Of a DNA stretch of 64,000 bases, positions 3,943 through 62,038 are shown in pieces. The stretch comes from Patescibacteria group bacterium (lineage in GTDB: Bacteria > Patescibacteriota > Minisyncoccia > Phycocordibacterales > GCA-2747955): contig JBLYPV010000001.1 of NCBI GenBank assembly GCA_048538215.1, positions 11,495 to 75,494 of the forward strand. Reading direction: 5' to 3'. Each line of letters opens with the position of its first letter. Position 1 is the first letter of the stretch. The notes under the pieces are model-generated. The model saw only the letters and a list, made by a program, of their open reading frames with translations, was not told where the DNA came from and did no database searches. A program made the position numbers and the translations under genes.

Positions 3943-4266
3943 CTACCCATCAAGTGGTGTGGGCATTATCGGCACGAGAGGCCTGGGTGCCTGGCTGATG
4001 CCGAGCCTGTGTAGAGCTTGCTCGGGCGTCCACCCGAGCCCGGCAAGCTCGAGGGCTTTTTTCGCCATTTCCTTGTAGCTCAAGAGCCCAAGCTCTGCCT
4101 CTACATATTGCTCGACCTCGCTCCAGGCGAGCTCAAGAGCCTGCTGTTGGTTTTCAGGGGTCGTTTTGACCTTCGCCCCATCAGCTTGGGGCGAAATCGA
4201 GCCTTGGTAGAGGTGGATTACTTCACCGGAGTCTTTCGTCACGGCACTTTCCTTTCTTTTGCACAA
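3943..4266 (-). CDS. Hypothetical protein, GC-rich composition. The real start is possibly the GTG near 4237.
   Basis: ORF on the minus strand in a locally GC-rich stretch. I judged it more protein-like than the overlapping plus ORF 4018..4311. No recognisable family. Confidence 0.3.
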   Translation of the reverse strand: MCKRKESAVTKDSGEVIHLYQGSISPQADGAKVKTTPENQQQALELAWSEVEQYVEAELGLLSYKEMAKKALELAGLGWTPEQALHRLGISQAPRPLVPIMPTPLDG

Positions 4267-4324
4267 TTAAGGCAAATTATATTTAATATAAATATTTTGT
4301 CAATTTCTTAAAAAATAGAGTATG

Positions 4325-4432: not shown

Positions 4433-4876
4433 TCAATCAATGTCTGGATCGAAGCGATTTGAGTATTCCCACATTTCTTCCCAATCTCCTCTTGGATCAT
4501 AACAAGGCAGATAGGGCTCGTGGTGCAACAAAATCAATTCGATTTCACAAAAGCAATCTGTAGGATGGTAGCTCAGGAGCTCTCCTATGCGATTGCAAAT
4601 TTCCATCACCCCTGATGCAAGGATGACATCAATACTTTTTTGAGGAATATTGAAGTGATAGCGAGCATGTGCATAAGCTGTCATAGTCAAAGCACGAATT
4701 GCTTCGCGTATTTCTCTACGCTTGGCTTCGCGCAAGCTGTATTGGAGACAGGCCTGCCAACAATCTATATCGGGTCCACAGAGGAATTCCCTAATGTATT
4801 GCATAGGCACTATTTGACCAGATCCTTGCCCTTCATAGGGTATATGCATAAAGATCATAATATCCTCCCGGACCAC
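4433..4876 (-). CDS. Hypothetical protein (147 aa)
   Basis: Clean ORF, Cys/His-containing, no family recognised. Confidence 0.4.
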   Translation of the reverse strand: MVREDIMIFMHIPYEGQGSGQIVPMQYIREFLCGPDIDCWQACLQYSLREAKRREIREAIRALTMTAYAHARYHFNIPQKSIDVILASGVMEICNRIGELLSYHPTDCFCEIELILLHHEPYLPCYDPRGDWEEMWEYSNRFDPDID

Positions 4877-5560: not shown

Positions 5561-5774
5561 TGGGGGAAGTAGGGGGAGTCGGTACCAGGTTGCAAAGCGT
5601 CGCTTGCGCTCGCTAAGCACCTCCTACCCGGCCTCGGCTTGCAAGGCACATGGCCGACCGAGTGCCTTGCATATGCCTCCGTCTTTCGATTCCCCACGCA
5701 GGCAAAGCAGTTTATCTGCTCCACTTTCACTAATAAAAATAGCCCCACTATCGTGGAGCTTATTTTTATACTAG

Positions 5775-6214
5775 TGGAAGTGGGGGGAATCGAACCCCCG
5801 TCCACATACGGATATCTCGTGCACATCTACGAATGCTAGTTTATTTATTATCTCAAGATAATTGAGAGCTTCACGCTAGTGTCTATAAAATAAACTAAAC
5901 GATACTAGAGCTAGTCGTAATTTATTTTATATAGAGATCACGACACTTCTCTATACTATCCTTCTTATCTCACAATAGAGGGGGAATGAAGGAATATTCA
6001 CCCGTTCTACCGCCAAGTACGCTCGGGAGTATAAATGCTCAACCGACGGCTTACGCCATTGCGTATACTGGAGCGAGAGAAGCGTATGGGCTAGCCATAG
6101 CTCCTTTCACTTTTGCGACTACGTTTGCACGTAAAAAGTATGGGCCTTTTACAGATCTGCCCAATCTACATCGCATACACGGATATGTTCGTATTGTCAA
6201 AGCCGGTCACTCCC
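5775..6214 (-). ncRNA. ssrA: tmRNA (SsrA), ~440 nt
   Basis: The minus-strand 3' end …GGACGGGGGUUCGAUUCCCCCCACUUCCA matches the canonical tmRNA TΨC arm and acceptor end (compare E. coli GGACGCGGGUUCAACUCCCGCCAGCUCCACCA). The 5' GGGAGUG pairs with the 3' CACUUCC to form the acceptor stem. An internal tag ORF starts at resume codon GCA (…GCA AAA GUG … UAC GCA AUG GCG UAA) and ends …VYAMA*. CCA is not encoded. It is antisense to the spurious ORF 5986..6225. Confidence 0.8.
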
Positions 6215-31752: not shown

Positions 31753-32295
31753 ATGCAATTCTCTAATCCTGATCAAATTCTTGCAAATGTAGGCATCTCT
31801 CCTGGGTCAGTAGTAGTAGATTTTGGGGCCGGAAGTGGATTCTATAGTATAGCAGCCGCACGACTCGTGGGCTCTGGTGGTCGAGTGTATGCTATCGATA
31901 TTCAACACGCCTTACTTGAGCGCCTCAAAGAAGCTGCACATAGTGAAGGGCTCTCTCAGCTTGATACGGTATGGGGGGACATCGAGACTTATGGCGGTAC
32001 TCGTCTGCGTGATGGTACTGCTGATGTGGTCATTTGTGCAAATATTCTTTTCCAGCTTGAAAATCGAAGGGCTGGGATAGATGAAGCCAAACGGCTCTTG
32101 CATCCAAGTGGTCGGATGCTTGTCATTGATTGGGATGATAGCCATTTTGGTATGGGCCCAGATCCATCACTAATCATTACTAGAGATGAGGCGGTGGAGC
32201 TATTGGAGTCACAAGGTTTAGTAGTCGAATCGGACACACCCGCAGGGGATCATCACTGGGGGCTTATCCTACGCCACGCACATAATACTGTATGA
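31753..32295 (+). CDS. Class I SAM-dependent methyltransferase (180 aa)
   Basis: Motif I VVDFGAGSGFYS and a Methyltransf_11-like layout. Confidence 0.6.
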   Translation: MQFSNPDQILANVGISPGSVVVDFGAGSGFYSIAAARLVGSGGRVYAIDIQHALLERLKEAAHSEGLSQLDTVWGDIETYGGTRLRDGTADVVICANILFQLENRRAGIDEAKRLLHPSGRMLVIDWDDSHFGMGPDPSLIITRDEAVELLESQGLVVESDTPAGDHHWGLILRHAHNTV

Positions 32296-33608
32296 ATACA
32301 AACAAACGATTTTCTATCTTCCAAATAGCTATGATAGCCATCTTTGGCTTACTTGCTCTTGCGGGAGTGGTAGCATTTGCCACCTATCGAGCTCCCGAGC
32401 CGGCTTCGATGATAGGTAAGGTGGATATTTGGGGCACCTATGATGCAGATATGTTTAATCGCTACTTACGAGAGCTCAAAGAGCAAGATGAATCGCTCAA
32501 GAAAGTATCCTATCGTGAGCTTGATCCCTCAGATTTTAGACAAGATGTATTAGAGGCAATGGCGAGTGGAAATTCTCCTGATTTACTTTTTATCCCTGAG
32601 TACGTCCTGTATCCATATCTCGACAAGATAGTGACCATCCCCTCAAGTTCGTATTCTCGTAGTGATTTTATTAATAATTTTGTAGATGCAAGTGAGATTT
32701 ATTTTCAAAATGATGGAATCGTGGGACTGCCATTAGCAGTGGATCCCTTGGTGGTCTATTGGAATAGAGATATCTTTGCTTCAGCTGGGGTGCCACGCCC
32801 GCCATCAAGCTGGACAGAATATTTTTCTCTCGCTCAAAAGCTTTCTCAGGTAGATGAGAGCTTGAGTATCAAGCAGTCGGCTATTGCTCTGGGAGAAAGT
32901 GATAATATCAATTATTTTCGTGAAATTATGGCTACTTTGATTCTTCAAATTGGTAACCCAATTATTAGCCGAGACGAAGATGGTAGATTGCGAGCACAGC
33001 TTGAGGGAGATCGTGATACAGAGTCGGCTCAAGCGGCTGTTCGATTCTTTACTGAGTTTTCAAATGCATCCAAGGCAGCCTACTCTTGGAATCGCTCTAT
33101 GCCTACAAGTAGAGATGCTTTTTTGGCAGGTGATTTGGCAATCTATCTAGCTCCTATCTCGGATATATTTTCTATACGTGTTGCTAATCCTAATCTTAAT
33201 TTTGCTATTGCTGAGATCCCATCAGTGGATACCACCATTTCTCGTCGCAAGGCAGTGTACGCTACTTTGTATGGATTTGTCATTCCGAAAGTATCAGACA
33301 ATAGAGGCGGGGCTTATCAAGCAGCTATAGCACTAACAAGTGATCAAGGAGTGCGTACATTTACCGGAATCACTGGTCTAGGCCCTGCTCGACGAGATCA
33401 AACAGCTGAAAGCTCGGAGGAGGCTTATCGTGATATTGTGAAGAGAGAAGCGCTCTATGCTCAGACCTTTCTCGATCCTCAGTATCAAAGTACCCAGCAA
33501 GTATTAGCCGATATGGTGGAGTATGTGACGAGTGGACAGCGATCAATCAGCAATGCCTTATATGTGTCCAACGCAGCCTTACGGACGGTAATTAATAATG
33601 CAAAGTAA
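32292..33608 (+). CDS. Membrane-anchored extracellular solute-binding protein (ABC-type, family 1)
   Basis: N-terminal TM anchor, then an SBP_bac_1-like core (…DLLFIPEYVLYPYLDKIV…AVDPLVVYWNRDIF…). No permease or ATPase gene is adjacent. Confidence 0.55.
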   Translation: MNTNKRFSIFQIAMIAIFGLLALAGVVAFATYRAPEPASMIGKVDIWGTYDADMFNRYLRELKEQDESLKKVSYRELDPSDFRQDVLEAMASGNSPDLLFIPEYVLYPYLDKIVTIPSSSYSRSDFINNFVDASEIYFQNDGIVGLPLAVDPLVVYWNRDIFASAGVPRPPSSWTEYFSLAQKLSQVDESLSIKQSAIALGESDNINYFREIMATLILQIGNPIISRDEDGRLRAQLEGDRDTESAQAAVRFFTEFSNASKAAYSWNRSMPTSRDAFLAGDLAIYLAPISDIFSIRVANPNLNFAIAEIPSVDTTISRRKAVYATLYGFVIPKVSDNRGGAYQAAIALTSDQGVRTFTGITGLGPARRDQTAESSEEAYRDIVKREALYAQTFLDPQYQSTQQVLADMVEYVTSGQRSISNALYVSNAALRTVINNAK

Positions 33609-35157
33609 TATGAAAATTATGAATAATCAAAAAATAGCAATTTTACACCATAATAAGTATTTATTTTTGATTAATAATTACTTATTATTATCTATAGCGC
33701 TTATGGTAATGGTATCTATCGTTGCGTTACCAAAAAGTTTATACGCAGATGTCTCTTCAGAAAATACTACGAATCAGGAGGTTGATTATCATGAGGTGGT
33801 TCCCGCATTAGATGATTACTTTTGGTCTTGGGATATTTTACCGAGTGAGGTTGATAAAGATGACCTGGATACATTTCTAGAAAATGGGATCTCTGGAGAT
33901 CAAATCGGAGTTGTCAAGAAACAATTATTGCCTATTAAGCCAGCTTCATATACGGGTACTCTAACGTCATATATGATGAGTCAGTGTTTATTAGAAAAGT
34001 CTCAATATCCCTCTGCTGGAAATTGTTATATAGCTTGCACAAGAACAGCAACTGATAGTGATTGGGTGTCTGGATCACAGTGCGAAGGGAAGTCTCCGAA
34101 AGGGTATTATTTTTTTTATGTTGAATCATTAGGATCAAGAGTCGTAGTAGAAGATACATTAATTGGACAGGCGGGAGCGAATCTTGCATCTTATATTATA
34201 GATAATGAAGTTGAGGCAAAATGTTTTAAAGACGATTTAAGTACTGGTAAAACTGCTCGTGAGCAATGCGAAGAAGCTATGGCTCCTTATAAAGACTGGA
34301 TTCCAGAAACTACAAATTCAATGAGTGATAATTTCGCTGGCACTGGTTGGGATTGGTTTGATAATCTCACTACAATTGTAAGACCATTTTCAAGCTCAGT
34401 TTCTTTTCGGTGTACTGAATTGGGCGAAGATAATTTTTTTAATAATTACGATGTTGGAGATTATTGCTTTAATTATGCAGCTAGAAATTCTGATGCACGT
34501 ATTGATATTAATGTGGGCACAGGAGATACCTGCTTTTATAGCGAAGATAGATGTATTCTTACAGTGGCGACTGCATATGCAGGACTAGTTATTGTAAATG
34601 AAGACGGAGAGGAAATCCCAGTTAACCGTACAATTAGAAATTCAGATTATTGTCGAGCAGATAAAGACGATGCAGGCAGGGAGGTATATTGTATGAATGA
34701 CAGGGGTATTCCTATCCAGAATGCAAATCCGATCAATGAAGCATTATACCAAGACCAGTATGAACAGTGGCAAGCTCAAGTGCAAGCACATACTGCTGCT
34801 GTGGACGCCTATGAGGCTGCTGGTACTCAAGCCTTAAAGGAAGCGGGAGCATTAGTGCCGTGTATGGGGACCGATTGTGGGTGGAAGGAGCTCATTGATT
34901 TAATTAATCGAATTATTCGCTTTATGATCACTATCGCAGCTGTATTGCTAGTGCTTATGATTATCTATGCAGGATTCCAGCTCGTAAGTGCTCGAGGAAA
35001 TGCAGCGGCTCTCACAAAAGCTAAAAGTGCTCTCTGGAAGGCGATTGCAGGCTTTGTTTTAGTGCTCACCGCCTGGCTGATTGTGAATGCGGTAGTGAGC
35101 TTGATTCTCAAAGATGAATTTAAAGATGATCCGAATGTGAATATCTTGAAGAATTAG
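33598..35157 (+). CDS. Large secreted Cys-rich protein (≥24 Cys) with a C-terminal two-helix TrbC/VirB2-like pilin module
   Basis: An N-terminal signal/TM is followed by a ~380-aa Cys-rich ectodomain. The last ~80 aa (IIRFMITIAAVLLVLMIIYAGFQLVSARGNAAALTKAKSALWKAIAGFVLVLTAWLIVNAVVSLIL) have the same helix-loop-helix layout as the six downstream small proteins. Confidence 0.6.
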   Translation: MQSNMKIMNNQKIAILHHNKYLFLINNYLLLSIALMVMVSIVALPKSLYADVSSENTTNQEVDYHEVVPALDDYFWSWDILPSEVDKDDLDTFLENGISGDQIGVVKKQLLPIKPASYTGTLTSYMMSQCLLEKSQYPSAGNCYIACTRTATDSDWVSGSQCEGKSPKGYYFFYVESLGSRVVVEDTLIGQAGANLASYIIDNEVEAKCFKDDLSTGKTAREQCEEAMAPYKDWIPETTNSMSDNFAGTGWDWFDNLTTIVRPFSSSVSFRCTELGEDNFFNNYDVGDYCFNYAARNSDARIDINVGTGDTCFYSEDRCILTVATAYAGLVIVNEDGEEIPVNRTIRNSDYCRADKDDAGREVYCMNDRGIPIQNANPINEALYQDQYEQWQAQVQAHTAAVDAYEAAGTQALKEAGALVPCMGTDCGWKELIDLINRIIRFMITIAAVLLVLMIIYAGFQLVSARGNAAALTKAKSALWKAIAGFVLVLTAWLIVNAVVSLILKDEFKDDPNVNILKN

Positions 35158-35211: not shown

Positions 35212-35583
35212 ATGAAATACTTATCCTTGCTCGTTAGTCGATCAAAATATACCGCCCTACTATTTTTCTTGTCTGTTGCTTTAGTGCATGCAGAAGGAGG
35301 AGACGGTACACTCATCAATCCTTTGGCTGGTGATATGACACTGATGCAATTTGTCACCTTTTTGGTGCGTGATGTTTTGGTAGGGATAATTGCTCCTATT
35401 GTACTCACCCTTGCGCTTCTTTATACTGGCTTTATGTTTATCTCCGCTCAAGGAAATCCTAGCAAACTCCAAGATGCTCAGCGTAATTTTGTTTATGTCA
35501 TCGTGGGAGGAATTTTACTTCTCGGAGCATATGTGATTCTTGCGGTGATTACCAATACGGTCGATCAGCTCACGGTAAATTAA
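35212..35583 (+). CDS. TrbC/VirB2-like pilin candidate 1 (Sec signal peptide + two hydrophobic helices)
   Basis: Signal peptide …ALVHA|EGG. The mature ~95 aa has two TM helices split by a short polar loop (YTGFMFISAQGNPSK) and a WG/GxxxG-rich helix 2. This is the VirB2/TrbC architecture. Confidence 0.55.
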   Translation: MKYLSLLVSRSKYTALLFFLSVALVHAEGGDGTLINPLAGDMTLMQFVTFLVRDVLVGIIAPIVLTLALLYTGFMFISAQGNPSKLQDAQRNFVYVIVGGILLLGAYVILAVITNTVDQLTVN

Positions 35584-35593
35584 TGATTATTGT

Positions 35594-35890
35594 ATGCGTA
35601 CATTATATTACTTCATACTTCTAACACTTCCTACTCTAGCTTTTGCTCAAACTTTCAAGAGCTTGGTAGATGATCTTGTTTTTATCATCAATGCCTCCAT
35701 CGGAATAATAGTGGCTTTGTCTGTAGCAGTATTTTTTTACGGGATGGCAATGTATGTGTTTCGTATGGGATCAGGATCTACTGAGGGTCATACAGGTGGC
35801 TATAATTTGATGATGTGGGGGATTTTGATTTTTTTCGTGATGGCCTCAGTGTGGGGGATTGTCAATTTGGTAGCTGGAAGCTTTTTCTAA
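35594..35890 (+). CDS. TrbC/VirB2-like pilin candidate 2
   Basis: Signal peptide …LAFA|QT. FFYGMAMYVFRMGSGS loop; LMMWG…SVWGIVNL in helix 2. Confidence 0.55.
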   Translation: MRTLYYFILLTLPTLAFAQTFKSLVDDLVFIINASIGIIVALSVAVFFYGMAMYVFRMGSGSTEGHTGGYNLMMWGILIFFVMASVWGIVNLVAGSFF

Positions 35891-35909: not shown

Positions 35910-36281
35910 ATGAAATATGCACCTAAAATTACTATCTATTCGATGCTCGTCCTCGGAGGCACTATACCTCACCTAGCCTATGGGTATAGAATAGACAATG
36001 TATATTCTTTGTTTATTCTTCTTGATTATCTGATAGTACTGGCAGTGCAAATTGCTTTTGCGCTGGCGGTGGTGGCTTTTTTCTATGGATTGGCTCTCTA
36101 TATTTTTAAGTCAGGCAATCATAGTGCTAATGCGCAGGGGATTCGACTTATGCTCTGGGGGGTCGTGGCACTTTTTGTGATGGTTTCAATTTGGGGGATA
36201 GTGATAATCCTACAAGATTCTTTTGGAGTGGATAATAGAGATACACCACGCTACCCCCAGCTACACATCAGGGGGCGCTAA
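35910..36281 (+). CDS. TrbC/VirB2-like pilin candidate 3
   Basis: Same architecture. FFYGLALYIFKSGNHS loop; LMLWGVVALFVMVSIWGIV. Confidence 0.55.
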   Translation: MKYAPKITIYSMLVLGGTIPHLAYGYRIDNVYSLFILLDYLIVLAVQIAFALAVVAFFYGLALYIFKSGNHSANAQGIRLMLWGVVALFVMVSIWGIVIILQDSFGVDNRDTPRYPQLHIRGR

Positions 36282-36415
36282 CTTTATCTAAAGGGACAAG
36301 ACGATGTGCATTTGTCCCAATGATACTTGTGGATAGCGCACTTCCACTTCAAGGAGAGCTTGGTATGATACAAATATACTTATAAATATAGTAGATAACA
36401 ATAAATGATAACAAT

Positions 36416-36772
36416 ATGAAACAAATAGTAATTTCAGGCCTTGCCTTAGCTCTACCTTTTCTTGCTTTAGCACAAAATGCTGAAGGGAAAGGCCTTGGTG
36501 GAGTACTTGATAGCATTGGAAAATTGCTCGATCTCGCCATCGGCCTCCTCTTTGCTCTCGCCGTCCTCGCCTTTTTCTACGGCTTGGCAATCTACATATT
36601 CAAATCAGGAAAAGAGAAGCAGGAAGGAATCAATATTATGGTAATGGGCACCATTGCACTTTTTGTAATGGCTTCTATTTACGGTATTATTGGATTGCTA
36701 CAGAATAGCTTTGAGGTGACAGGGAGTGAAGAAATAGGTCTCCCTGATCCTACTCTAGGAATAGGAAATTAA
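36416..36772 (+). CDS. TrbC/VirB2-like pilin candidate 4
   Basis: Signal peptide …LALA|QNA. Its core is identical at the DNA level over ~161 bp to candidate 5. Confidence 0.6.
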   Translation: MKQIVISGLALALPFLALAQNAEGKGLGGVLDSIGKLLDLAIGLLFALAVLAFFYGLAIYIFKSGKEKQEGINIMVMGTIALFVMASIYGIIGLLQNSFEVTGSEEIGLPDPTLGIGN

Positions 36773-36816
36773 TTACTTCTTTTAATTTTTAATAAAATAC
36801 GATAATATTCACATAT

Positions 36817-37164
36817 ATGAAATATACAACACTCGGAATTATAAGTTTGGTCGTTCCTTTTTTGGCTTTTGCTCAAGCTAACGGAAGTAGTAATCTTGAA
36901 GGGCTTCTCAAGAGTATAGGAGGATTACTTGATACTGCCATCGGCCTCCTCTTTGCTCTCGCCGTCCTCGCCTTTTTCTACGGCTTGGCAATCTACATAT
37001 TCAAATCAGGAAAAGACAAGCAGGAGGGAATCAATATTATGGTAATGGGCACCATTGCACTTTTTGTAATGGCTTCTATTTACGGTATTATTGGATTATT
37101 GCAAGATAGTTTTAATGTCAAAAAAGATGGTAGCGAAATTACGCTACCTAAAGCACCTAAGTAA
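36817..37164 (+). CDS. TrbC/VirB2-like pilin candidate 5
   Basis: Signal peptide …LAFA|QA. The core 36937-37097 is identical to 36536-36696 apart from one E/D change. Confidence 0.6.
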   Translation: MKYTTLGIISLVVPFLAFAQANGSSNLEGLLKSIGGLLDTAIGLLFALAVLAFFYGLAIYIFKSGKDKQEGINIMVMGTIALFVMASIYGIIGLLQDSFNVKKDGSEITLPKAPK

Positions 37165-37270
37165 ATAGTTAGAAAATCTTATTAGGGTATCATTATAGAT
37201 AAGATTTTATTTTATAAATTAAAATAAAGGATGTTCTTATGTGCCATTGAGATATCAGCAAATCATTTTT

Positions 37271-37615
37271 ATGAAATACCACACAGCATTTCTATTTTTC
37301 TTACCCGCGGTAGTTTTTGCTGATGCCATCACTATTGATCAAGGCGTGATTCAATTAATTAATAATTTTATAAACGCCATCATCAATCCAATGATTGTCT
37401 TATTGATAGCGGCGGCGCTCTTGCTATTTTTATGGGGGCTATTACGACTCATGATAGATCTATCAAATGGAGGAAAGGGAGAGGAGGGGAAGCGGCATAT
37501 GCTATGGGGGCTTGTGGGCTTGATTGTTATGATTAGTGTTTGGGGGATTATTAATCTCATCGCCAATTCAATCGGAGCAGAAGTATCACAAATAGACGCT
37601 TCTGATAATTTTTAG
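37271..37615 (+). CDS. TrbC/VirB2-like pilin candidate 6 (start probably at MKYHTAFL; the ORF track starts at 37241)
   Basis: Signal peptide …VVFA|DA. Two helices with a charged loop (SNGGKGEEGKRH); MLWGLVGLIVMISVWGIINL. Confidence 0.5.
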   Translation: MKYHTAFLFFLPAVVFADAITIDQGVIQLINNFINAIINPMIVLLIAAALLLFLWGLLRLMIDLSNGGKGEEGKRHMLWGLVGLIVMISVWGIINLIANSIGAEVSQIDASDNF

Positions 37616-38386: not shown

Positions 38387-38941
38387 ATGCAATTAATCGC
38401 TCCCATTATTCTCATACTTATCTCTGGCGGTCTCTTTGTGACTTGGATTGACCCTCAATACCAAGAAATCAAAGATCTACAGCTCGAAAAAGCTCGATAT
38501 GACGAAGCACTTGATCGAGTGGTAGAAATCCGTGAGGCACGAAATCAGATTCAATCACGCTACAATACAATTGAAGACCAAGATTTAGATCGACTGGGTA
38601 AGATGATACCTTCGCATATTGATAATATTCGTTTGATTCTTGATGTAAATAGTGTAGCCAATGCCCGGCAAATGACTATCCGTGATATTAGGATTAACCT
38701 TAATGAAGATAGTTCACCAGGAGCTAAAATATCTGTTGGCAACCAAGGCGCACACAAGAGTGTAGGCTTTCGTTTTACGGTAGTCACTACCTATGAAAAT
38801 TTCAAGAAATTTCTTGATGACTTAGCTCTTTCATTGCGTATTATCGATGTAGAATCGGTTGAGATTAGTAGTATTCAAGATGAAACCAGCTTTTATCGTT
38901 TCGATGTGGGTATCCGTACCTACTGGCTTCCCCAAGAGTAA
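38387..38941 (+). CDS. PilO-like bitopic membrane protein
   Basis: An N-terminal TM is followed by a coiled coil (QYQEIKDLQLEKARYDEALDRVVEIREARNQ) and a ferredoxin-like C-terminus. The assignment rests on architecture only. Confidence 0.4.
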   Translation: MQLIAPIILILISGGLFVTWIDPQYQEIKDLQLEKARYDEALDRVVEIREARNQIQSRYNTIEDQDLDRLGKMIPSHIDNIRLILDVNSVANARQMTIRDIRINLNEDSSPGAKISVGNQGAHKSVGFRFTVVTTYENFKKFLDDLALSLRIIDVESVEISSIQDETSFYRFDVGIRTYWLPQE

Positions 38942-39439: not shown

Positions 39440-41164
39440 ATGTCACTTGTTTCATACTTAGTACAAGAAAGAATAATAGATGAAATGGATGCTACGCGTA
39501 TCGAAGAAGATGCACAAACAAAAGGTAGCTCTATTGATGAGGCGGTAATTGATGCTGGGGTAGATCCAGATGTGCTTTTTACTGCTAAACAAAAATTTTT
39601 TTCTGACTACGAAGTACGTTATCAGGAGAGTAAGGATATGGTGCCACCAGAAGTGCTTGAATATGTGCCAGAAAATTCTGCTCGGCTCTATGGCTTTGTG
39701 CCTCTAGCAATACGCGATGGAGATATACTCGAAGTAGGTATTCTTGACCCAGATAATCTATCTGCCAAATCTGCTCTCGAATTTATCGCCGGGGCGGAAG
39801 GGATTTCTTATGAACTATATCTTATCTCTTATGATTATTATAGTTTTATTATTGAAAATTATTCAGGGCTTAAAGGTGAGGTACAAGAAGCACTGGGGGC
39901 ACTTGAAGCAGAACAGCAATCATATGCAGCTAAGGTTTCAAAAAGAAAAAATTACCAAGATATTGACGAAACAGAGCGAATTACTGAAGATGCTCCTATT
40001 ACCAAGATAGTATCTAATATTCTCAAGCATGCCGCTGAGACTCGTACCTCTGATGTACACATTGAGCCACTTAGTGGACAAACAGATGTTCGCTATCGTA
40101 TAGATGGCTTACTCCAAAAGGATCTCACTCTCCCTAAAAGTATTCATGAAGCTGTCATAGCTCGCATTAAAATACTTTCAAAGATTAAATTAGATGAGAA
40201 GCGTATTCCGCAAGATGGTCGTTTTTCAGCTAAATTACTAGGGCGAAAAATTGATTTTCGTGTTTCTACTTTTCCTACGTATTATGGAGAGAAATGTGTG
40301 ATGCGTTTGTTGGAATCAGATCGAGGGACACTTAATATTCATGAGCTGGGGCTCGTGGGTGAAAATGCAGAAAAAATGAAGCGAATCATTACAAAGCCCT
40401 ATGGAATTATTCTTGTTTGTGGCCCCACTGGATCGGGTAAAACTACTTCTCTATATTCATTCCTTGATGAGCTTGATAAGCAAACAGTAAATGTAGTGTC
40501 ACTCGAAAATCCAATTGAAATGAATATTGAGGGTGTATCACAATCACAAGTGCGTCCTGATATCGGCTATACTTTTGCCAATGGTTTGCGATCGGTCTTG
40601 CGTCAAGACCCCGACATTATTATGGTCGGTGAAATTCGTGATACCGAGACAGCTCAATTGGCTATCCAAGCAGCGCTTACTGGGCATCTTGTTTTTTCTA
40701 CCATTCACACCAACACAGCATCCGATGTAGTGCAACGATTAGTTGATATGGGGGTAGAGCAGTATTTGATAGGACCAACTATCGTAGCAGCAATTGGGCA
40801 ACGATTGGTGCGTACCATTGCCCCCAACTCAGGCAAAGAAGTACCAATGAGCCCAGCGGTACGAGAGATGATTCGGCATCAAATTTCTGATTTACCAAAA
40901 GAGGTACAAGCACAATTTACCTCTCAAGATACAATGTATGAGGCTGTGCCAAGCGATGCCTATCCCACAGGAGAGAGTGGACGAATTGGCGTATTTGAAA
41001 TTCTCGAAATGAATCCAGAGCTCGAACGCTTGGTGCTCAAAGATCCAAGTAGTCGGGCTATATATGATGAAGCTCGCAAGCACGGCTTCATCACTTTTAA
41101 AGAAGACGCTATTCTCAAGGCCTTGGAGGGTAGGATTACTTTTGAACAAGTAATGAAACTATAA
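39440..41164 (+). CDS. pilB: Type IV pilus/T2SS assembly ATPase (PilB/GspE family) with an N-terminal GspE_N domain
   Basis: Walker A (VCGPTGSGKTTS), Asp box, His box, Walker B (DIIMVGEIRD), and the N-terminal T2SSE_N-like domain. Confidence 0.85.
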   Translation: MSLVSYLVQERIIDEMDATRIEEDAQTKGSSIDEAVIDAGVDPDVLFTAKQKFFSDYEVRYQESKDMVPPEVLEYVPENSARLYGFVPLAIRDGDILEVGILDPDNLSAKSALEFIAGAEGISYELYLISYDYYSFIIENYSGLKGEVQEALGALEAEQQSYAAKVSKRKNYQDIDETERITEDAPITKIVSNILKHAAETRTSDVHIEPLSGQTDVRYRIDGLLQKDLTLPKSIHEAVIARIKILSKIKLDEKRIPQDGRFSAKLLGRKIDFRVSTFPTYYGEKCVMRLLESDRGTLNIHELGLVGENAEKMKRIITKPYGIILVCGPTGSGKTTSLYSFLDELDKQTVNVVSLENPIEMNIEGVSQSQVRPDIGYTFANGLRSVLRQDPDIIMVGEIRDTETAQLAIQAALTGHLVFSTIHTNTASDVVQRLVDMGVEQYLIGPTIVAAIGQRLVRTIAPNSGKEVPMSPAVREMIRHQISDLPKEVQAQFTSQDTMYEAVPSDAYPTGESGRIGVFEILEMNPELERLVLKDPSSRAIYDEARKHGFITFKEDAILKALEGRITFEQVMKL

Positions 41165-41330: not shown

Positions 41331-42389
41331 ATGGACATGAAAGAAGAGTTGAAAAAATTAATTCAAATTGTCGTCTCAGAAGAGGCATCAGATCTTCATC
41401 TTTCGGAAGGGCGCTATCCTACTATTCGAGTATCTGGAGCGCTCATACCGATTACTAAAAGCCGAGAATTATCTGAAGAAGATTTATCTATACTTTTGAA
41501 TTTAATACTCACCCCTGATCAGCGCGAACGATTTATTGCTAATAAAGAGATGGATTTTGCTTTTGAAGCGGGGGGAGTACGCTTTCGTGGCAATGCTTAC
41601 TATCAACAAGGAGATGTCTCTATCGCCTTACGACAAATTAATAATAAAGTAAGCTCTCTTGAAGAGCTTGGATTGCCTAGCATACTCGAAACATTTGCAA
41701 AAAAAGAACAAGGATTTTTCTTAGTGGTAGGGCCTACTGGGCATGGCAAATCTACTACGCTCGCTACTTTAATTGATATTATCAATCAGAGTCGTACAGA
41801 ACACATCGTGACAATTGAAGACCCAGTTGAATTTTTGTTTGAACAAAAGCAGTCTATTATAGATCAACGAGAAGTAGGATTTGATACAAGGAATTTTTCA
41901 GCAGCACTCAGAAGTGCATTCCGACAAGATATTGATGTTTTGATGATAGGAGAGATGCGTGGCCCAGAGACAATGGAGACGGCCATTACCGCTGCTGAGA
42001 CGGGGCACTTAGTATTCTCCACTCTCCATACTAATACCGCTTCACAGACAATCGATCGTATTATCGATACCTTTAGCGGGGATAAGCAAAAACAAATCCG
42101 TACTCAGCTCTCGAGCTCGCTTATGGGAATTTTTTCTCAACGACTCATTCCTTCGGTATCAGGAGGGCGGGTACCTGCCTACGAGCTTTTGATCAATACT
42201 CCTGCTGTTTCCAATTTGATTCGAGAAGGAAGAATTCATGAGATTGATTCTTTTATTGAGACATCTTCACAACACGGTATGATTTCTCTCAATCGGTCGC
42301 TTGCTACCCTTGTGCGTGAGGGGGAGATTTCAGTAGAAGATGCATATCGTTATTCTCCTCAGAGTAAGAATCTAGATCGCTTGCTCTAA
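41331..42389 (+). CDS. pilT: Twitching-motility/retraction ATPase (PilT family)
   Basis: 352 aa. Walker A (VVGPTGHGKSTT), DVLMIGEMRG, GHLVFSTLHTNTA. Confidence 0.8.
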   Translation: MDMKEELKKLIQIVVSEEASDLHLSEGRYPTIRVSGALIPITKSRELSEEDLSILLNLILTPDQRERFIANKEMDFAFEAGGVRFRGNAYYQQGDVSIALRQINNKVSSLEELGLPSILETFAKKEQGFFLVVGPTGHGKSTTLATLIDIINQSRTEHIVTIEDPVEFLFEQKQSIIDQREVGFDTRNFSAALRSAFRQDIDVLMIGEMRGPETMETAITAAETGHLVFSTLHTNTASQTIDRIIDTFSGDKQKQIRTQLSSSLMGIFSQRLIPSVSGGRVPAYELLINTPAVSNLIREGRIHEIDSFIETSSQHGMISLNRSLATLVREGEISVEDAYRYSPQSKNLDRLL

Positions 42390-60688: not shown

Positions 60689-61417
60689 TCAACTTGGATG
60701 GAAGAGTAATCGAGCTTCTGCCCGAAATCCCTCGCCGGGCTTGAGTGATTTTTGCTCACCTTGTTTTCGCCCAGGATGCAGAAGCATCACCGCTAGGTAG
60801 CGTGCGATGTCTGTGGAGAATATTGCCCAGCACTCCCAATTGCTGGCATTCTCCACCTTGGTGACGCCACTTGCTGTACCAAGCTCAAGATACGCACTTG
60901 CTGTGGGCCAAAGCTCAGGAGGAGCGGACTCCTTGATGTCTGTCCAATCAATTAGGGCGCCTTTTTCATCCCGGAGGGTGAAATTTTGCCCATAAGTGGC
61001 GAGGTAGAATATCATAGCGAAATTGAGCGGTAGGGGATTTTCTTCATTGCCCTCATCTTTGTGCAAGATGGAGAAGCTATGCTCAAGCTCCTGCATATTC
61101 CCGTGAGCGGACTCACGAATTTGCTGGCAGAAGAGGGCAGGCCAATTCCACCTTTGATGAAAGGTAAATGAGCTGATCTCTCCCTGATCGCCCCGGCGAA
61201 AATTTGTGTGATCGGTGGGGCGAAGCTTTCGACTGCTCTCGTAGAGAGCAGTATCGAGGAGCTCCCCAGGGCTTGCTTCCCGCACGATGGGGTAGCAGAT
61301 GAGGCTCCCACCGTGCTTCCTCTCGTTATCGAGAGGATAGAGAATGGGCACGCCGGTGTGGCTCGTCCAGAGAGTGATCCGTCCGTTGGTCGGATCGATA
61401 TGATGATTAGTGCTCAT
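60689..61417 (-). CDS. Aldose-1-epimerase-fold-like protein (weak assignment). Noticeably higher GC than its surroundings.
   Basis: KHGGSLICYP… loosely resembles the HGG(I/V)P.C.PWFG region of D-hexose-6-phosphate mutarotases. Its codon usage is GC-rich (~50%+) against a ~40% background. Confidence 0.3.
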   Translation of the reverse strand: MSTNHHIDPTNGRITLWTSHTGVPILYPLDNERKHGGSLICYPIVREASPGELLDTALYESSRKLRPTDHTNFRRGDQGEISSFTFHQRWNWPALFCQQIRESAHGNMQELEHSFSILHKDEGNEENPLPLNFAMIFYLATYGQNFTLRDEKGALIDWTDIKESAPPELWPTASAYLELGTASGVTKVENASNWECWAIFSTDIARYLAVMLLHPGRKQGEQKSLKPGEGFRAEARLLFHPS

Positions 61418-61592
61418 CTGGCACTCCTCTTTTCTAATGTGCGATTTGACTGTAATGATACAATTATTTAATGAATAGTCAAGGTATTCGTAATATCAGA
61501 TTTATTTTAATCAAAGCTGTATTATACACATATAGTAATTTATATTAAAATTACATAGAAAAGTAGTAATTTTTTGATACAATGTTTGACAT

Positions 61593-61795
61593 TGCCAGAT
61601 GCGTCTTGTGGTAATGGCAATGGTTCTGGTCCCAAGCTTGAATCTAGCATCTAGGTACACGAACCGTCTCTCGAGAATGATACAATTTATATATTGCCAG
61701 ATCGTCTAATGGTAGGACGACCGGTTCTGGTCCCAAGCTTGAATCTAGCATCTAGGTACACGAACCGTCTCTCGAGAATGATACAATTTATATAT
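61593..61795 (+). repeat. Two tandem ~101-bp decayed copies of the tRNA-Gln unit (the 5' half is tRNA-like; the 3' half has diverged)
   Basis: Copy 2 (61695-61795) shares the first 39 nt exactly with the intact tRNA (tgccagatcgtctaatggtaggacgaccggttctggtcc). Copy 1 (61593-61694) is further degraded in the D-arm. Copies 1 and 2 share an identical tail. Each unit keeps the upstream gatacaat motif. Confidence 0.7.
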
Positions 61796-61866
61796 TGCCA
61801 GATCGTCTAATGGTAGGACGACCGGTTCTGGTCCGGTTAATCTAGGTTCGAGTCCTAGTCTGGCAG
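61796..61866 (+). tRNA. tRNA-Gln (anticodon CUG)
   Basis: UGCCAGA U CGUC UAAUGGUAG GACG ACCGG UUCUGGU CCGGU UAAU CUAGG UUCGAGU CCUAG UCUGGCA G. All stems pair, the anticodon loop is UUCUGGU, and CCA is not encoded. Confidence 0.8.
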
Positions 61867-62038
61867 CAAAAATAATATCATTGCATGAGTTTGTAAATGG
61901 CTCCCGTCTGGTAGCTTGTAGCAAAGCAAAAACACTCTAGTGAGTGTTTTTGCTTTGGAGATGTTGACCTTTGCCAACATCTCAGTGCTTATAACTTGAT
62001 CATTCTCTAATCAGATAAGCCCTCTATAATTTAGAGTA

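Follow-up and report, generated by a model that had tools for sequence, protein, structure and literature searches.

Background

Both the tandem pilin gene array and a protein design with a conserved core and variable ends are already known. A survey of the Patescibacteria (Microb Genom 2025, PMC12102498) described 441 VirB2-like arrays of 2-11 genes each, in which the amino acid identity between members of one array is 25% on average and 54% at most. According to the same survey, 1,948 assemblies contain both a pilin gene and virB4, and in 1,135 of them the two are located near each other; its authors suggested that the arrays help in adapting to different hosts; a search of the text of PMC12102498 returned no mention of gene conversion. 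VirB2-like arrays are enriched in the Patescibacteria and, in the sole species tested, Southlakia epibionticum, the pilin series in the type IV secretion cluster is essential, namely for growth on the host (Cell 2023, PMC10633639). Anaplasma phagocytophilum and A. marginale possess many tandem VirB2 paralogs, which combine a signal peptide with two hydrophobic helices that are conserved, their diversity being concentrated in two hypervariable regions, of which the first is close to the mature N terminus and the second close to the C terminus (BMC Genomics 2012, PMC3556328).

Gene conversion between tandem paralogs is a textbook process, of which the locus described here appears to be a tidy, modest example. 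The textbook case of concerted evolution by gene conversion between bacterial paralogs is that of tufA and tufB in Salmonella and E. coli. A different arrangement is found in the pilE/pilS system of Neisseria, in msp2 of Anaplasma and in vlsE of Borrelia, where a single expression site is accompanied by many silent, truncated donors and where it is the variable segments that move.

The locus was found in a stretch of 64 kb (the window), in which two neighbouring genes of a pilin array, denoted d1 and d2, very probably record a recent partial gene conversion between old tandem VirB2-like paralogs. The array resembles the other Patescibacteria arrays (PF18895/PF04956) in that it consists of tandem genes for small proteins with a Sec signal and two hydrophobic helices, the paralogs being strongly diverged overall. 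It differs from them in the identity of d1 and d2, which amounts to 72% overall and 98% in the core against the maximum of 54% in the survey, and in its position, which is away from virB4 and beside PilO, PilB and PilT. The core-conserved, ends-variable design is shared with the VirB2 families of Anaplasma, but these belong to diderm intracellular pathogens with a complete VirB/D4 system, whereas the host of the window is a member of the Patescibacteria and no T4SS machinery is encoded in the 64 kb; the window locus, moreover, documents a specific, datable conversion tract at the level of the DNA.

As for tufA and tufB, the likeness lies in a non-reciprocal exchange, near-identical silent sites, sharp boundaries and an identity within the genome that exceeds the identity to the orthologues. 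The tuf genes, however, were converted over almost their full length and are far apart, while in d1 and d2 only 161 bp, making up the structural core, are concerned, at a distance of 401 bp. The cassette systems have in common with d1 and d2 that gene conversion acts on surface genes with conserved and variable segments; they differ in that d1 and d2 are two complete genes, that no silent copies are seen in the 64 kb, and that it is the conserved segment that was copied. What the window locus adds is a pair of paralogs that, with 72% identity, lies above the maximum of the survey, together with a clear conversion tract.

The pilin array and its genomic context

The array comprises six small tandem genes and one larger fusion protein, and sits between a methyltransferase/solute-binding-protein pair and a set of type IV pilus genes. 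The first array gene (33598-35157, + strand) encodes a protein of 519 aa, in which a large ectodomain containing Cys precedes a T4SS_pilin domain at the C-terminal end (residues 434-499) that scores 36.3 bits against PF18895 (T4SS_pilin), above the curated cut-off of 26.6 bits. It is followed, on the same strand, by the paralogs a (35212-35583; 123 aa), b (35594-35890; 98 aa) and c (35910-36281; 123 aa; P0009), by d1 and d2, and finally by f (37241-37615), the product of which is 124 aa long if translation begins at a GTG codon, and 114 aa long if it begins at the ATG at 37271. Paralog a is TrbC/VirB2-like, with scores of 25.2 bits for PF04956 and 23.6 bits for PF18895, both just sub-threshold; b was recognized by the family profile built in this study (E=8e-24); c reaches 23.8 bits for PF18895, and f, with 34.7 bits, is above the cut-off. 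Paralog b also matches the NCBIfam model NF045849 (pilin-like conjugal transfer protein) weakly, and weak matches to this pilin-like conjugal transfer protein were obtained from several array members. Within the array, c is the nearest relative of d1 and d2 (about 52% amino acid identity over the core).

The type IV pilus genes near the array encode PilO (38387-38941), PilB (39440-41164) and PilT (41331-42389). No gene for VirB4, VirB6 or another T4SS component was found in the 64 kb, for which all ORFs of more than 500 aa and the neighbours of the array were scanned.

The loci most closely related to the window are L003 (JGI 3300038982), L004 and L005. Of these, L003 is the closest: the solute-binding protein encoded beside its array is 73% identical in amino acids to that of the window, and its d protein 66%. 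Its counterpart of paralog a is 72% identical to that of the window, and the syntenic counterpart of the 519-aa protein has 431 aa. In both loci the small-pilin array is preceded by the same module of a methyltransferase, an SBP_bac_8 protein and a large protein that carries a pilin domain at its C terminus (window 31753-35157; L003 2-3136). In the locus L001 (2374-4638), of a distant genome, the methyltransferase and the solute-binding protein are followed by a far smaller pilin-like gene of 146 aa. The window gene for the solute-binding protein extends into the start of the gene that follows it, and no VirB4 is found nearby.

The proteins encoded by d1 and d2

The gene d1 (36416-36772, + strand) encodes a protein of 118 aa, P0001, with a 100% identical NCBI entry (ACKKL4_00235), and its tandem paralog d2 (36817-37164, + strand) a protein of 115 aa, P0002 (ACKKL4_00240). 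Both are annotated as hypothetical in a Patescibacteria metagenome-assembled genome, on a contig of 622,806 bp. The two proteins start with similar signal peptides, MKQIVISGLALALPFLALAQ and MKYTTLGIISLVVPFLAFAQ, and follow the VirB2/TrbC-like layout of a Sec-type signal peptide and two hydrophobic helices with a short, charged loop between them; in d1 the order is signal peptide (approximately residues 1-20), N tail, two-helix hairpin and C tail. Their own PF18895 scores (21.9 bits for d1 and 16.8 bits for d2) are below the cut-off of 26.6 bits; a precomputed match to this family is present on the orthologue P0003 and on most of the homologues. The best match in the PDB of a family profile of 30 members was the pilin filament of pKM101 TraM (8cw4; E=0.0012). 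The AlphaFold2 model of d1 is a helical hairpin with helices at residues 27-62 and 66-99 and a mean pLDDT of 81.5; the pLDDT is 86-94 over residues 31-100, and the C-terminal tail is of low confidence. A Foldseek search of the PDB with this hairpin, which is a simple fold, gave no significant match.

The preliminary description of this DNA had called d1 and d2 pilins, a designation that is correct only in the sense of a VirB2/TrbC-like (PF18895) T4SS pilin. The G/F(M)xxxE motif of the prepilin peptidase is absent from both sequences, the predicted d1 fold is a two-helix hairpin in which a globular domain is absent, and none of the Pfam matches is to a T4P pilin family; on these grounds we ruled out that d1 and d2 are type IV pilus pilins. 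Judged by their sequence and the predicted fold, they are most plausibly type IV secretion pilins of the PF18895 type. A scan for promoters and terminators gave no more sites than were found in shuffled sequence and is thus uninformative as to a co-transcription of d1 and d2.

A probable conversion tract between d1 and d2

The two genes contain a direct repeat, 36536-36696 in d1 and 36937-37097 in d2 (both on the + strand), in which 159 of the 161 nt are identical and which comprises codons 41-94 of either gene. The copies are offset by 401 nt and occupy the same register inside two complete tandem genes. The repeat had been reported as identical but for one nucleotide; it exists, but with two differences, namely 36616 G/37017 C, which changes GAG into GAC (Glu to Asp), and 36625 A/37026 G, which is silent (GAA/GAG). 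The longest exact runs within the tract are consequently 80 and 71 nt. When the 67 differences between d1 and d2 were shuffled over the 303 aligned coding positions, a stretch of 161 nt with at most two differences was obtained in 0 of 20,000 trials.

Within the 64 kb, the tract is confined to these two genes. Its leading 60 nt occur there exactly twice, whereas no occurrence is expected from 100 shuffles, even when 3 mismatches are allowed, and a third copy of the core was not found on either strand by self-BLAST of the 64-kb window. In a protein homology search, only d1, d2 and c were matched within the contig of the source genome. A scan of genome contigs yielded two loci only, both distant, and a scan of metagenomes yielded 20 loci, all with at most 57% identity; the part of L003 that would continue its second d-like gene was not retrieved. 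The core is absent from viral contigs, and there was consequently no hint of a phage origin.

Outside the tract, d1 and d2 are clearly different. The alignment is gap-free and in the same register through codon 101, but the identity falls to 53% of the nucleotides and 45% of the amino acids in the N flank (40 codons) and to 58% of the nucleotides in the C flank. The description of the flanks as unrelated, with swapped ends, was thus mistaken, as they are diverged homologues. By the method of NG86, dS and dN are 0.056 and 0.008 in the core and 1.94 and 0.56 in the N flank; in the C flank dN is 0.20 and dS is too saturated to compute. Among the codons that specify the same amino acid in both genes, 13 of 23 differ in the flanks and 2 of 53 in the core. 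Since the silent sites of the flanks are saturated, d1 and d2 are old paralogs and not recent duplicates.

The ends of the tract are abrupt, and silent differences abut on both of them. At the 5' edge, Leu-Leu-Asp is encoded by TTG CTC GAT in d1 and by TTA CTT GAT in d2; at the 3' edge, Leu-Leu-Gln is encoded by TTG CTA CAG and TTA TTG CAA, respectively. Because these silent differences lie amid conserved protein, the boundaries are those of a DNA segment and not of a protein segment, and selection at the level of the protein cannot explain the tract. A silent-site identity far above that of the flanking homologous sequence, in combination with abrupt ends, is the pattern that characterizes gene conversion.

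On the protein, the tract corresponds to residues 41-94, in which the hydrophobic part of helix 1 is followed by the loop KSGKEKQEG and by helix 2, itself hydrophobic; the signal peptide, a mature N tail of about 20 residues and a C tail of about 22 residues are outside it. Two earlier statements are borne out by this: that d1 and d2 are adjacent paralogs (they are in tandem and 72% identical in amino acids), and that the membrane core is conserved while the ends vary, since the tract corresponds to both helices and the loop and the tails are diverged. In the solved pili of the F type and the VirB2 type, the loop points toward the lumen, and the N and C termini are found at the outer surface. 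Should d1 and d2 have this topology, the packing core would be what the conversion made uniform, while the exposed surface would have kept its differences.

Comparison with orthologous loci

The cores of the orthologous d genes in L003, L004 and L005 are 74-80% identical to those of the window at the protein level and 68-74% at the nucleotide level. At third positions their identity to the window is 37-53%, compared with 94% between the cores of d1 and d2. The low third-position identity between orthologues means that the core is, as far as its sequence conservation indicates, free of constraint at the nucleotide level. Within the genome, d1 and d2 share 98% of the nucleotides of the core, against the 68-74% shared with the orthologues, and their flank identity of 53-58%, in tails that are short, is comparable to or below the flank identity to the orthologues.

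The gene order is b-c-d-f in L004 and L005, with a single d gene directly followed on its 3' side by the f orthologue, and b-c-d1-d2-f in the window. In L003 another gene begins after d, the first 32 residues of which are d-like, before the contig ends. Of the 63 nt that encode the signal peptide of this fragment, 36-38 agree with d1 and d2 and 18-27 with the other paralogs, and the C tail of d1, of only some 20 residues, is 64% identical to that of L003 d and 53% identical to that of d2. As L003 already begins a second d-like gene, the duplication probably predates the split between the lineages of the window and L003, a dating that is not firm, given that it depends on a fragment of 32 aa and on short tails.

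Three tandem d-type copies each are found in L015 (4974-6997) and L022 (4995-6369), of a more distant lineage, with differing N and C tails and with core proteins that are almost invariant. These appear to be independent amplifications in another lineage. The identity of their cores at third positions is just 63-75%, so that the conservation of the core is there mostly due to purifying selection, and the d1/d2 pair of the window differs in kind from these tandem copies.

Alternative explanations

The contrast between core and flanks bears directly on the possibility of a recent tandem duplication of the whole gene, after which the tails would have diverged very fast under positive selection while the core remained unchanged. 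That L004 and L005 have a single d gene indicates that a duplication did happen in the lineage of the window, and dN in the N flank is high (0.56). Positive selection on the protein, however, leaves silent sites unchanged, while those of the flanks are saturated (dS is 1.94 in the N flank and beyond computation in the C flank, and 0.056 in the core); where residues beside the tract are conserved, their codons differ, and L003, the closest relative, seems already to have a second d-like gene. The dS contrast largely refutes a recent duplication, which we consider improbable. The initial proposal of gene conversion or duplication can accordingly be narrowed down to its first half: recent conversion best explains the core, and duplication is at odds with a flank dS of about 1.9 where the core has 0.056. 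An error of assembly or polishing, by which one gene or its strain variants were falsely duplicated or similar paralogs were homogenised through mis-mapped reads, deserves attention in view of the metagenomic origin of the genome and of the tendency of repeats in this family to break short-read assemblies (L008 starts in a shared core, and L003 ends just inside its next d-like gene). Such an artefact is unlikely at d1 and d2, to about the same degree as the duplication. Neither copy is disrupted or out of frame, the two have diverged from each other in signal peptide, tails and upstream region, and the contig that carries them is 622,806 bp long. Two mismatches persist, leaving exact repeats of 80 and 71 nt, which we judge to be shorter than ordinary reads and large assembler k-mers, and polishing erases differences only where the copies are already nearly identical.

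The conserved core between variable ends could also suggest programmed antigenic or host-range variation of the pilE/pilS kind, in which the core would be the homology anchor for ends drawn from silent donors; for the VirB2 paralog arrays of Anaplasma, a role as antigenically variable surface organelle has indeed been proposed (PMC3556328). Both copies are, however, full-length genes with a start codon and a signal peptide, neither strand of the 64 kb contains an additional core, and the sole matches on the contig in the protein search were d1, d2 and c. Above all, the event homogenised the conserved part and did not exchange the variable parts. Cassette-type variation, as put forward in the preliminary description, is on these grounds highly improbable: two complete genes had their conserved part homogenised, a third copy is lacking in the 64 kb, and the scan for silent cassettes that had been recommended returned none within that range. 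The least probable of the alternatives is that the identity of the core is held by selection on the nucleotide sequence, for example because it contains an RNA or DNA element or is overlapped by another gene. It could be argued from the very unusual codon bias of helix 1 (15 of 20 codons ending in C), which is conserved in the orthologues; but it is the composition that is conserved and not the sequence, as the orthologous cores differ at 47-63% of third positions, and an antisense ORF at 36288-36590 overlaps d1 only, without a listed counterpart opposite d2.

The GC-rich codons of helix 1

The shared segment had been described as GC-rich, which applies to its first 20 codons (helix 1), where 16 of the 20 third positions are G or C and 15 are C, against a mean GC3 of 0.34 in the window. 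The remaining 101 nt of the core have 36% GC, and the core as a whole 43% compared with 41% for the window. Stretches of 20 codons with a GC3 of at least 16/20 are present in only three genes of the window; the sole such gene besides d1 and d2 is located at 60689-61417 on the - strand. In the d orthologues, GC3 over helix 1 is 0.75 (L003), 0.85 (L005) and 0.60 (L004), so that the C-ending bias is kept though the sequence itself has diverged. The bias is located at 36536-36595 and 36937-36996 in the window, at 4467-4526 in L003, and at the equivalent sites in L004 and L005.

As the bias is shown by single-copy orthologues too, it is no mark of conversion, and the suggestion that the GC-rich codons signal the event does not hold. 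A foreign origin and GC-biased conversion were both rejected as its cause on the same orthologue evidence. From the comparison of these genes, the C-ending bias is a conserved property of helix 1 of the d genes, not a trace of conversion or of foreign DNA.

A scenario for the origin of the shared core

Partial gene conversion, the reading that we favour, would have started from d1 and d2 as old tandem paralogs that encode VirB2/TrbC-like subunits of a T4SS-type pilin array of the Patescibacteria. Non-reciprocal homologous recombination would then have copied about 161 bp from one gene to the other, 401 bp away, whereby the divergence across both membrane/packing helices and the intervening loop was wiped out. 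The two point differences may have arisen afterwards, or the exchange may have taken place in two separate patches, 80 and 71 bp long. Conversion would have spared the signal peptides as well as the N and C tails, which are still strongly diverged. Exchange of the RecA type or template switching between close direct repeats is the presumable mechanism.

Selection may tolerate or favour such homogenisation of the core, since both subunits must presumably fit the same filament or membrane machinery, and the tails may be kept different for their function at the surface. A predicted side effect is that the direct repeat of 161 bp could act as a substrate for further conversion. Unequal crossing-over at the repeat would moreover be expected to delete or amplify copies and to yield hybrid combinations of N tail and C tail.

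Segmental sharing in other pilin loci

The sharing of a segment between neighbouring pilin genes was also observed elsewhere. In L001, which belongs to the Paceibacterota, a segment of 109 nt is shared at 97% identity (4190-4298 and 4643-4751) by two neighbouring pilin-like genes that differ in type. It spans the region of the start codon and the signal peptide and, to judge from the sequence, seems to reflect a segmental conversion that occurred independently in a different lineage. The contig L008 opens with at least 39 nt (1-39) that are 100% identical to the end of helix 2 of its downstream d-type gene (317-355) and that are followed by a different C tail. The locus L009 (340-520) is otherwise identical to L008 but has a different upstream gene, which points to a tandem copy that is present in some strains and absent from others, and to a break of the assembly at the repeat. 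The cases of L001 and L008 mean that segmental sharing among neighbouring pilin genes recurs, and it breaks short-read assemblies. The concern that shared cores may collapse in assembly is thus reasonable in general, as L008 breaks inside one. Since shared cores confuse or break short-read assemblies, the published array counts and identity figures may be biased.

As the pair d1/d2 indicates, sequence is still being exchanged between the paralogs of such an array, and only within the structural hairpin. There is thus a concrete reason to suppose that the subunits, for all the differences in their exposed tails, have an assembly context in common. A wider proposal would be that homogenisation limited to the core is a recurrent, selected way in which the Patescibacteria run their VirB2-like pilin arrays, but we consider this rather doubtful. 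If it were true, several subunits would, through conversion, retain packing and membrane helices that can replace one another, and so be able to co-assemble on one machine, while the exposed tails diversify for different host surfaces; the direct repeats would drive changes in copy number and shuffling of the tails within populations. One picture would then accommodate the recurrence in L001 and L008, the triplicated genes of L015 and L022 with their invariant cores, and the conserved C-ending bias of helix 1.

Other features of the window

At 61575-61867, the 5' part of a tRNA-Gln(CTG) gene, about 41 nt through the anticodon loop, is present in three tandem copies, each with a spacer of about 62 nt. 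The repeat unit is about 103 nt long (61575-61733 and 61678-61834 are 92% identical), and only the last copy extends to a complete tRNA (61796-61867). A tmRNA gene (Rfam RF00023, 87 bits) is located at 5772-6214 on the - strand.
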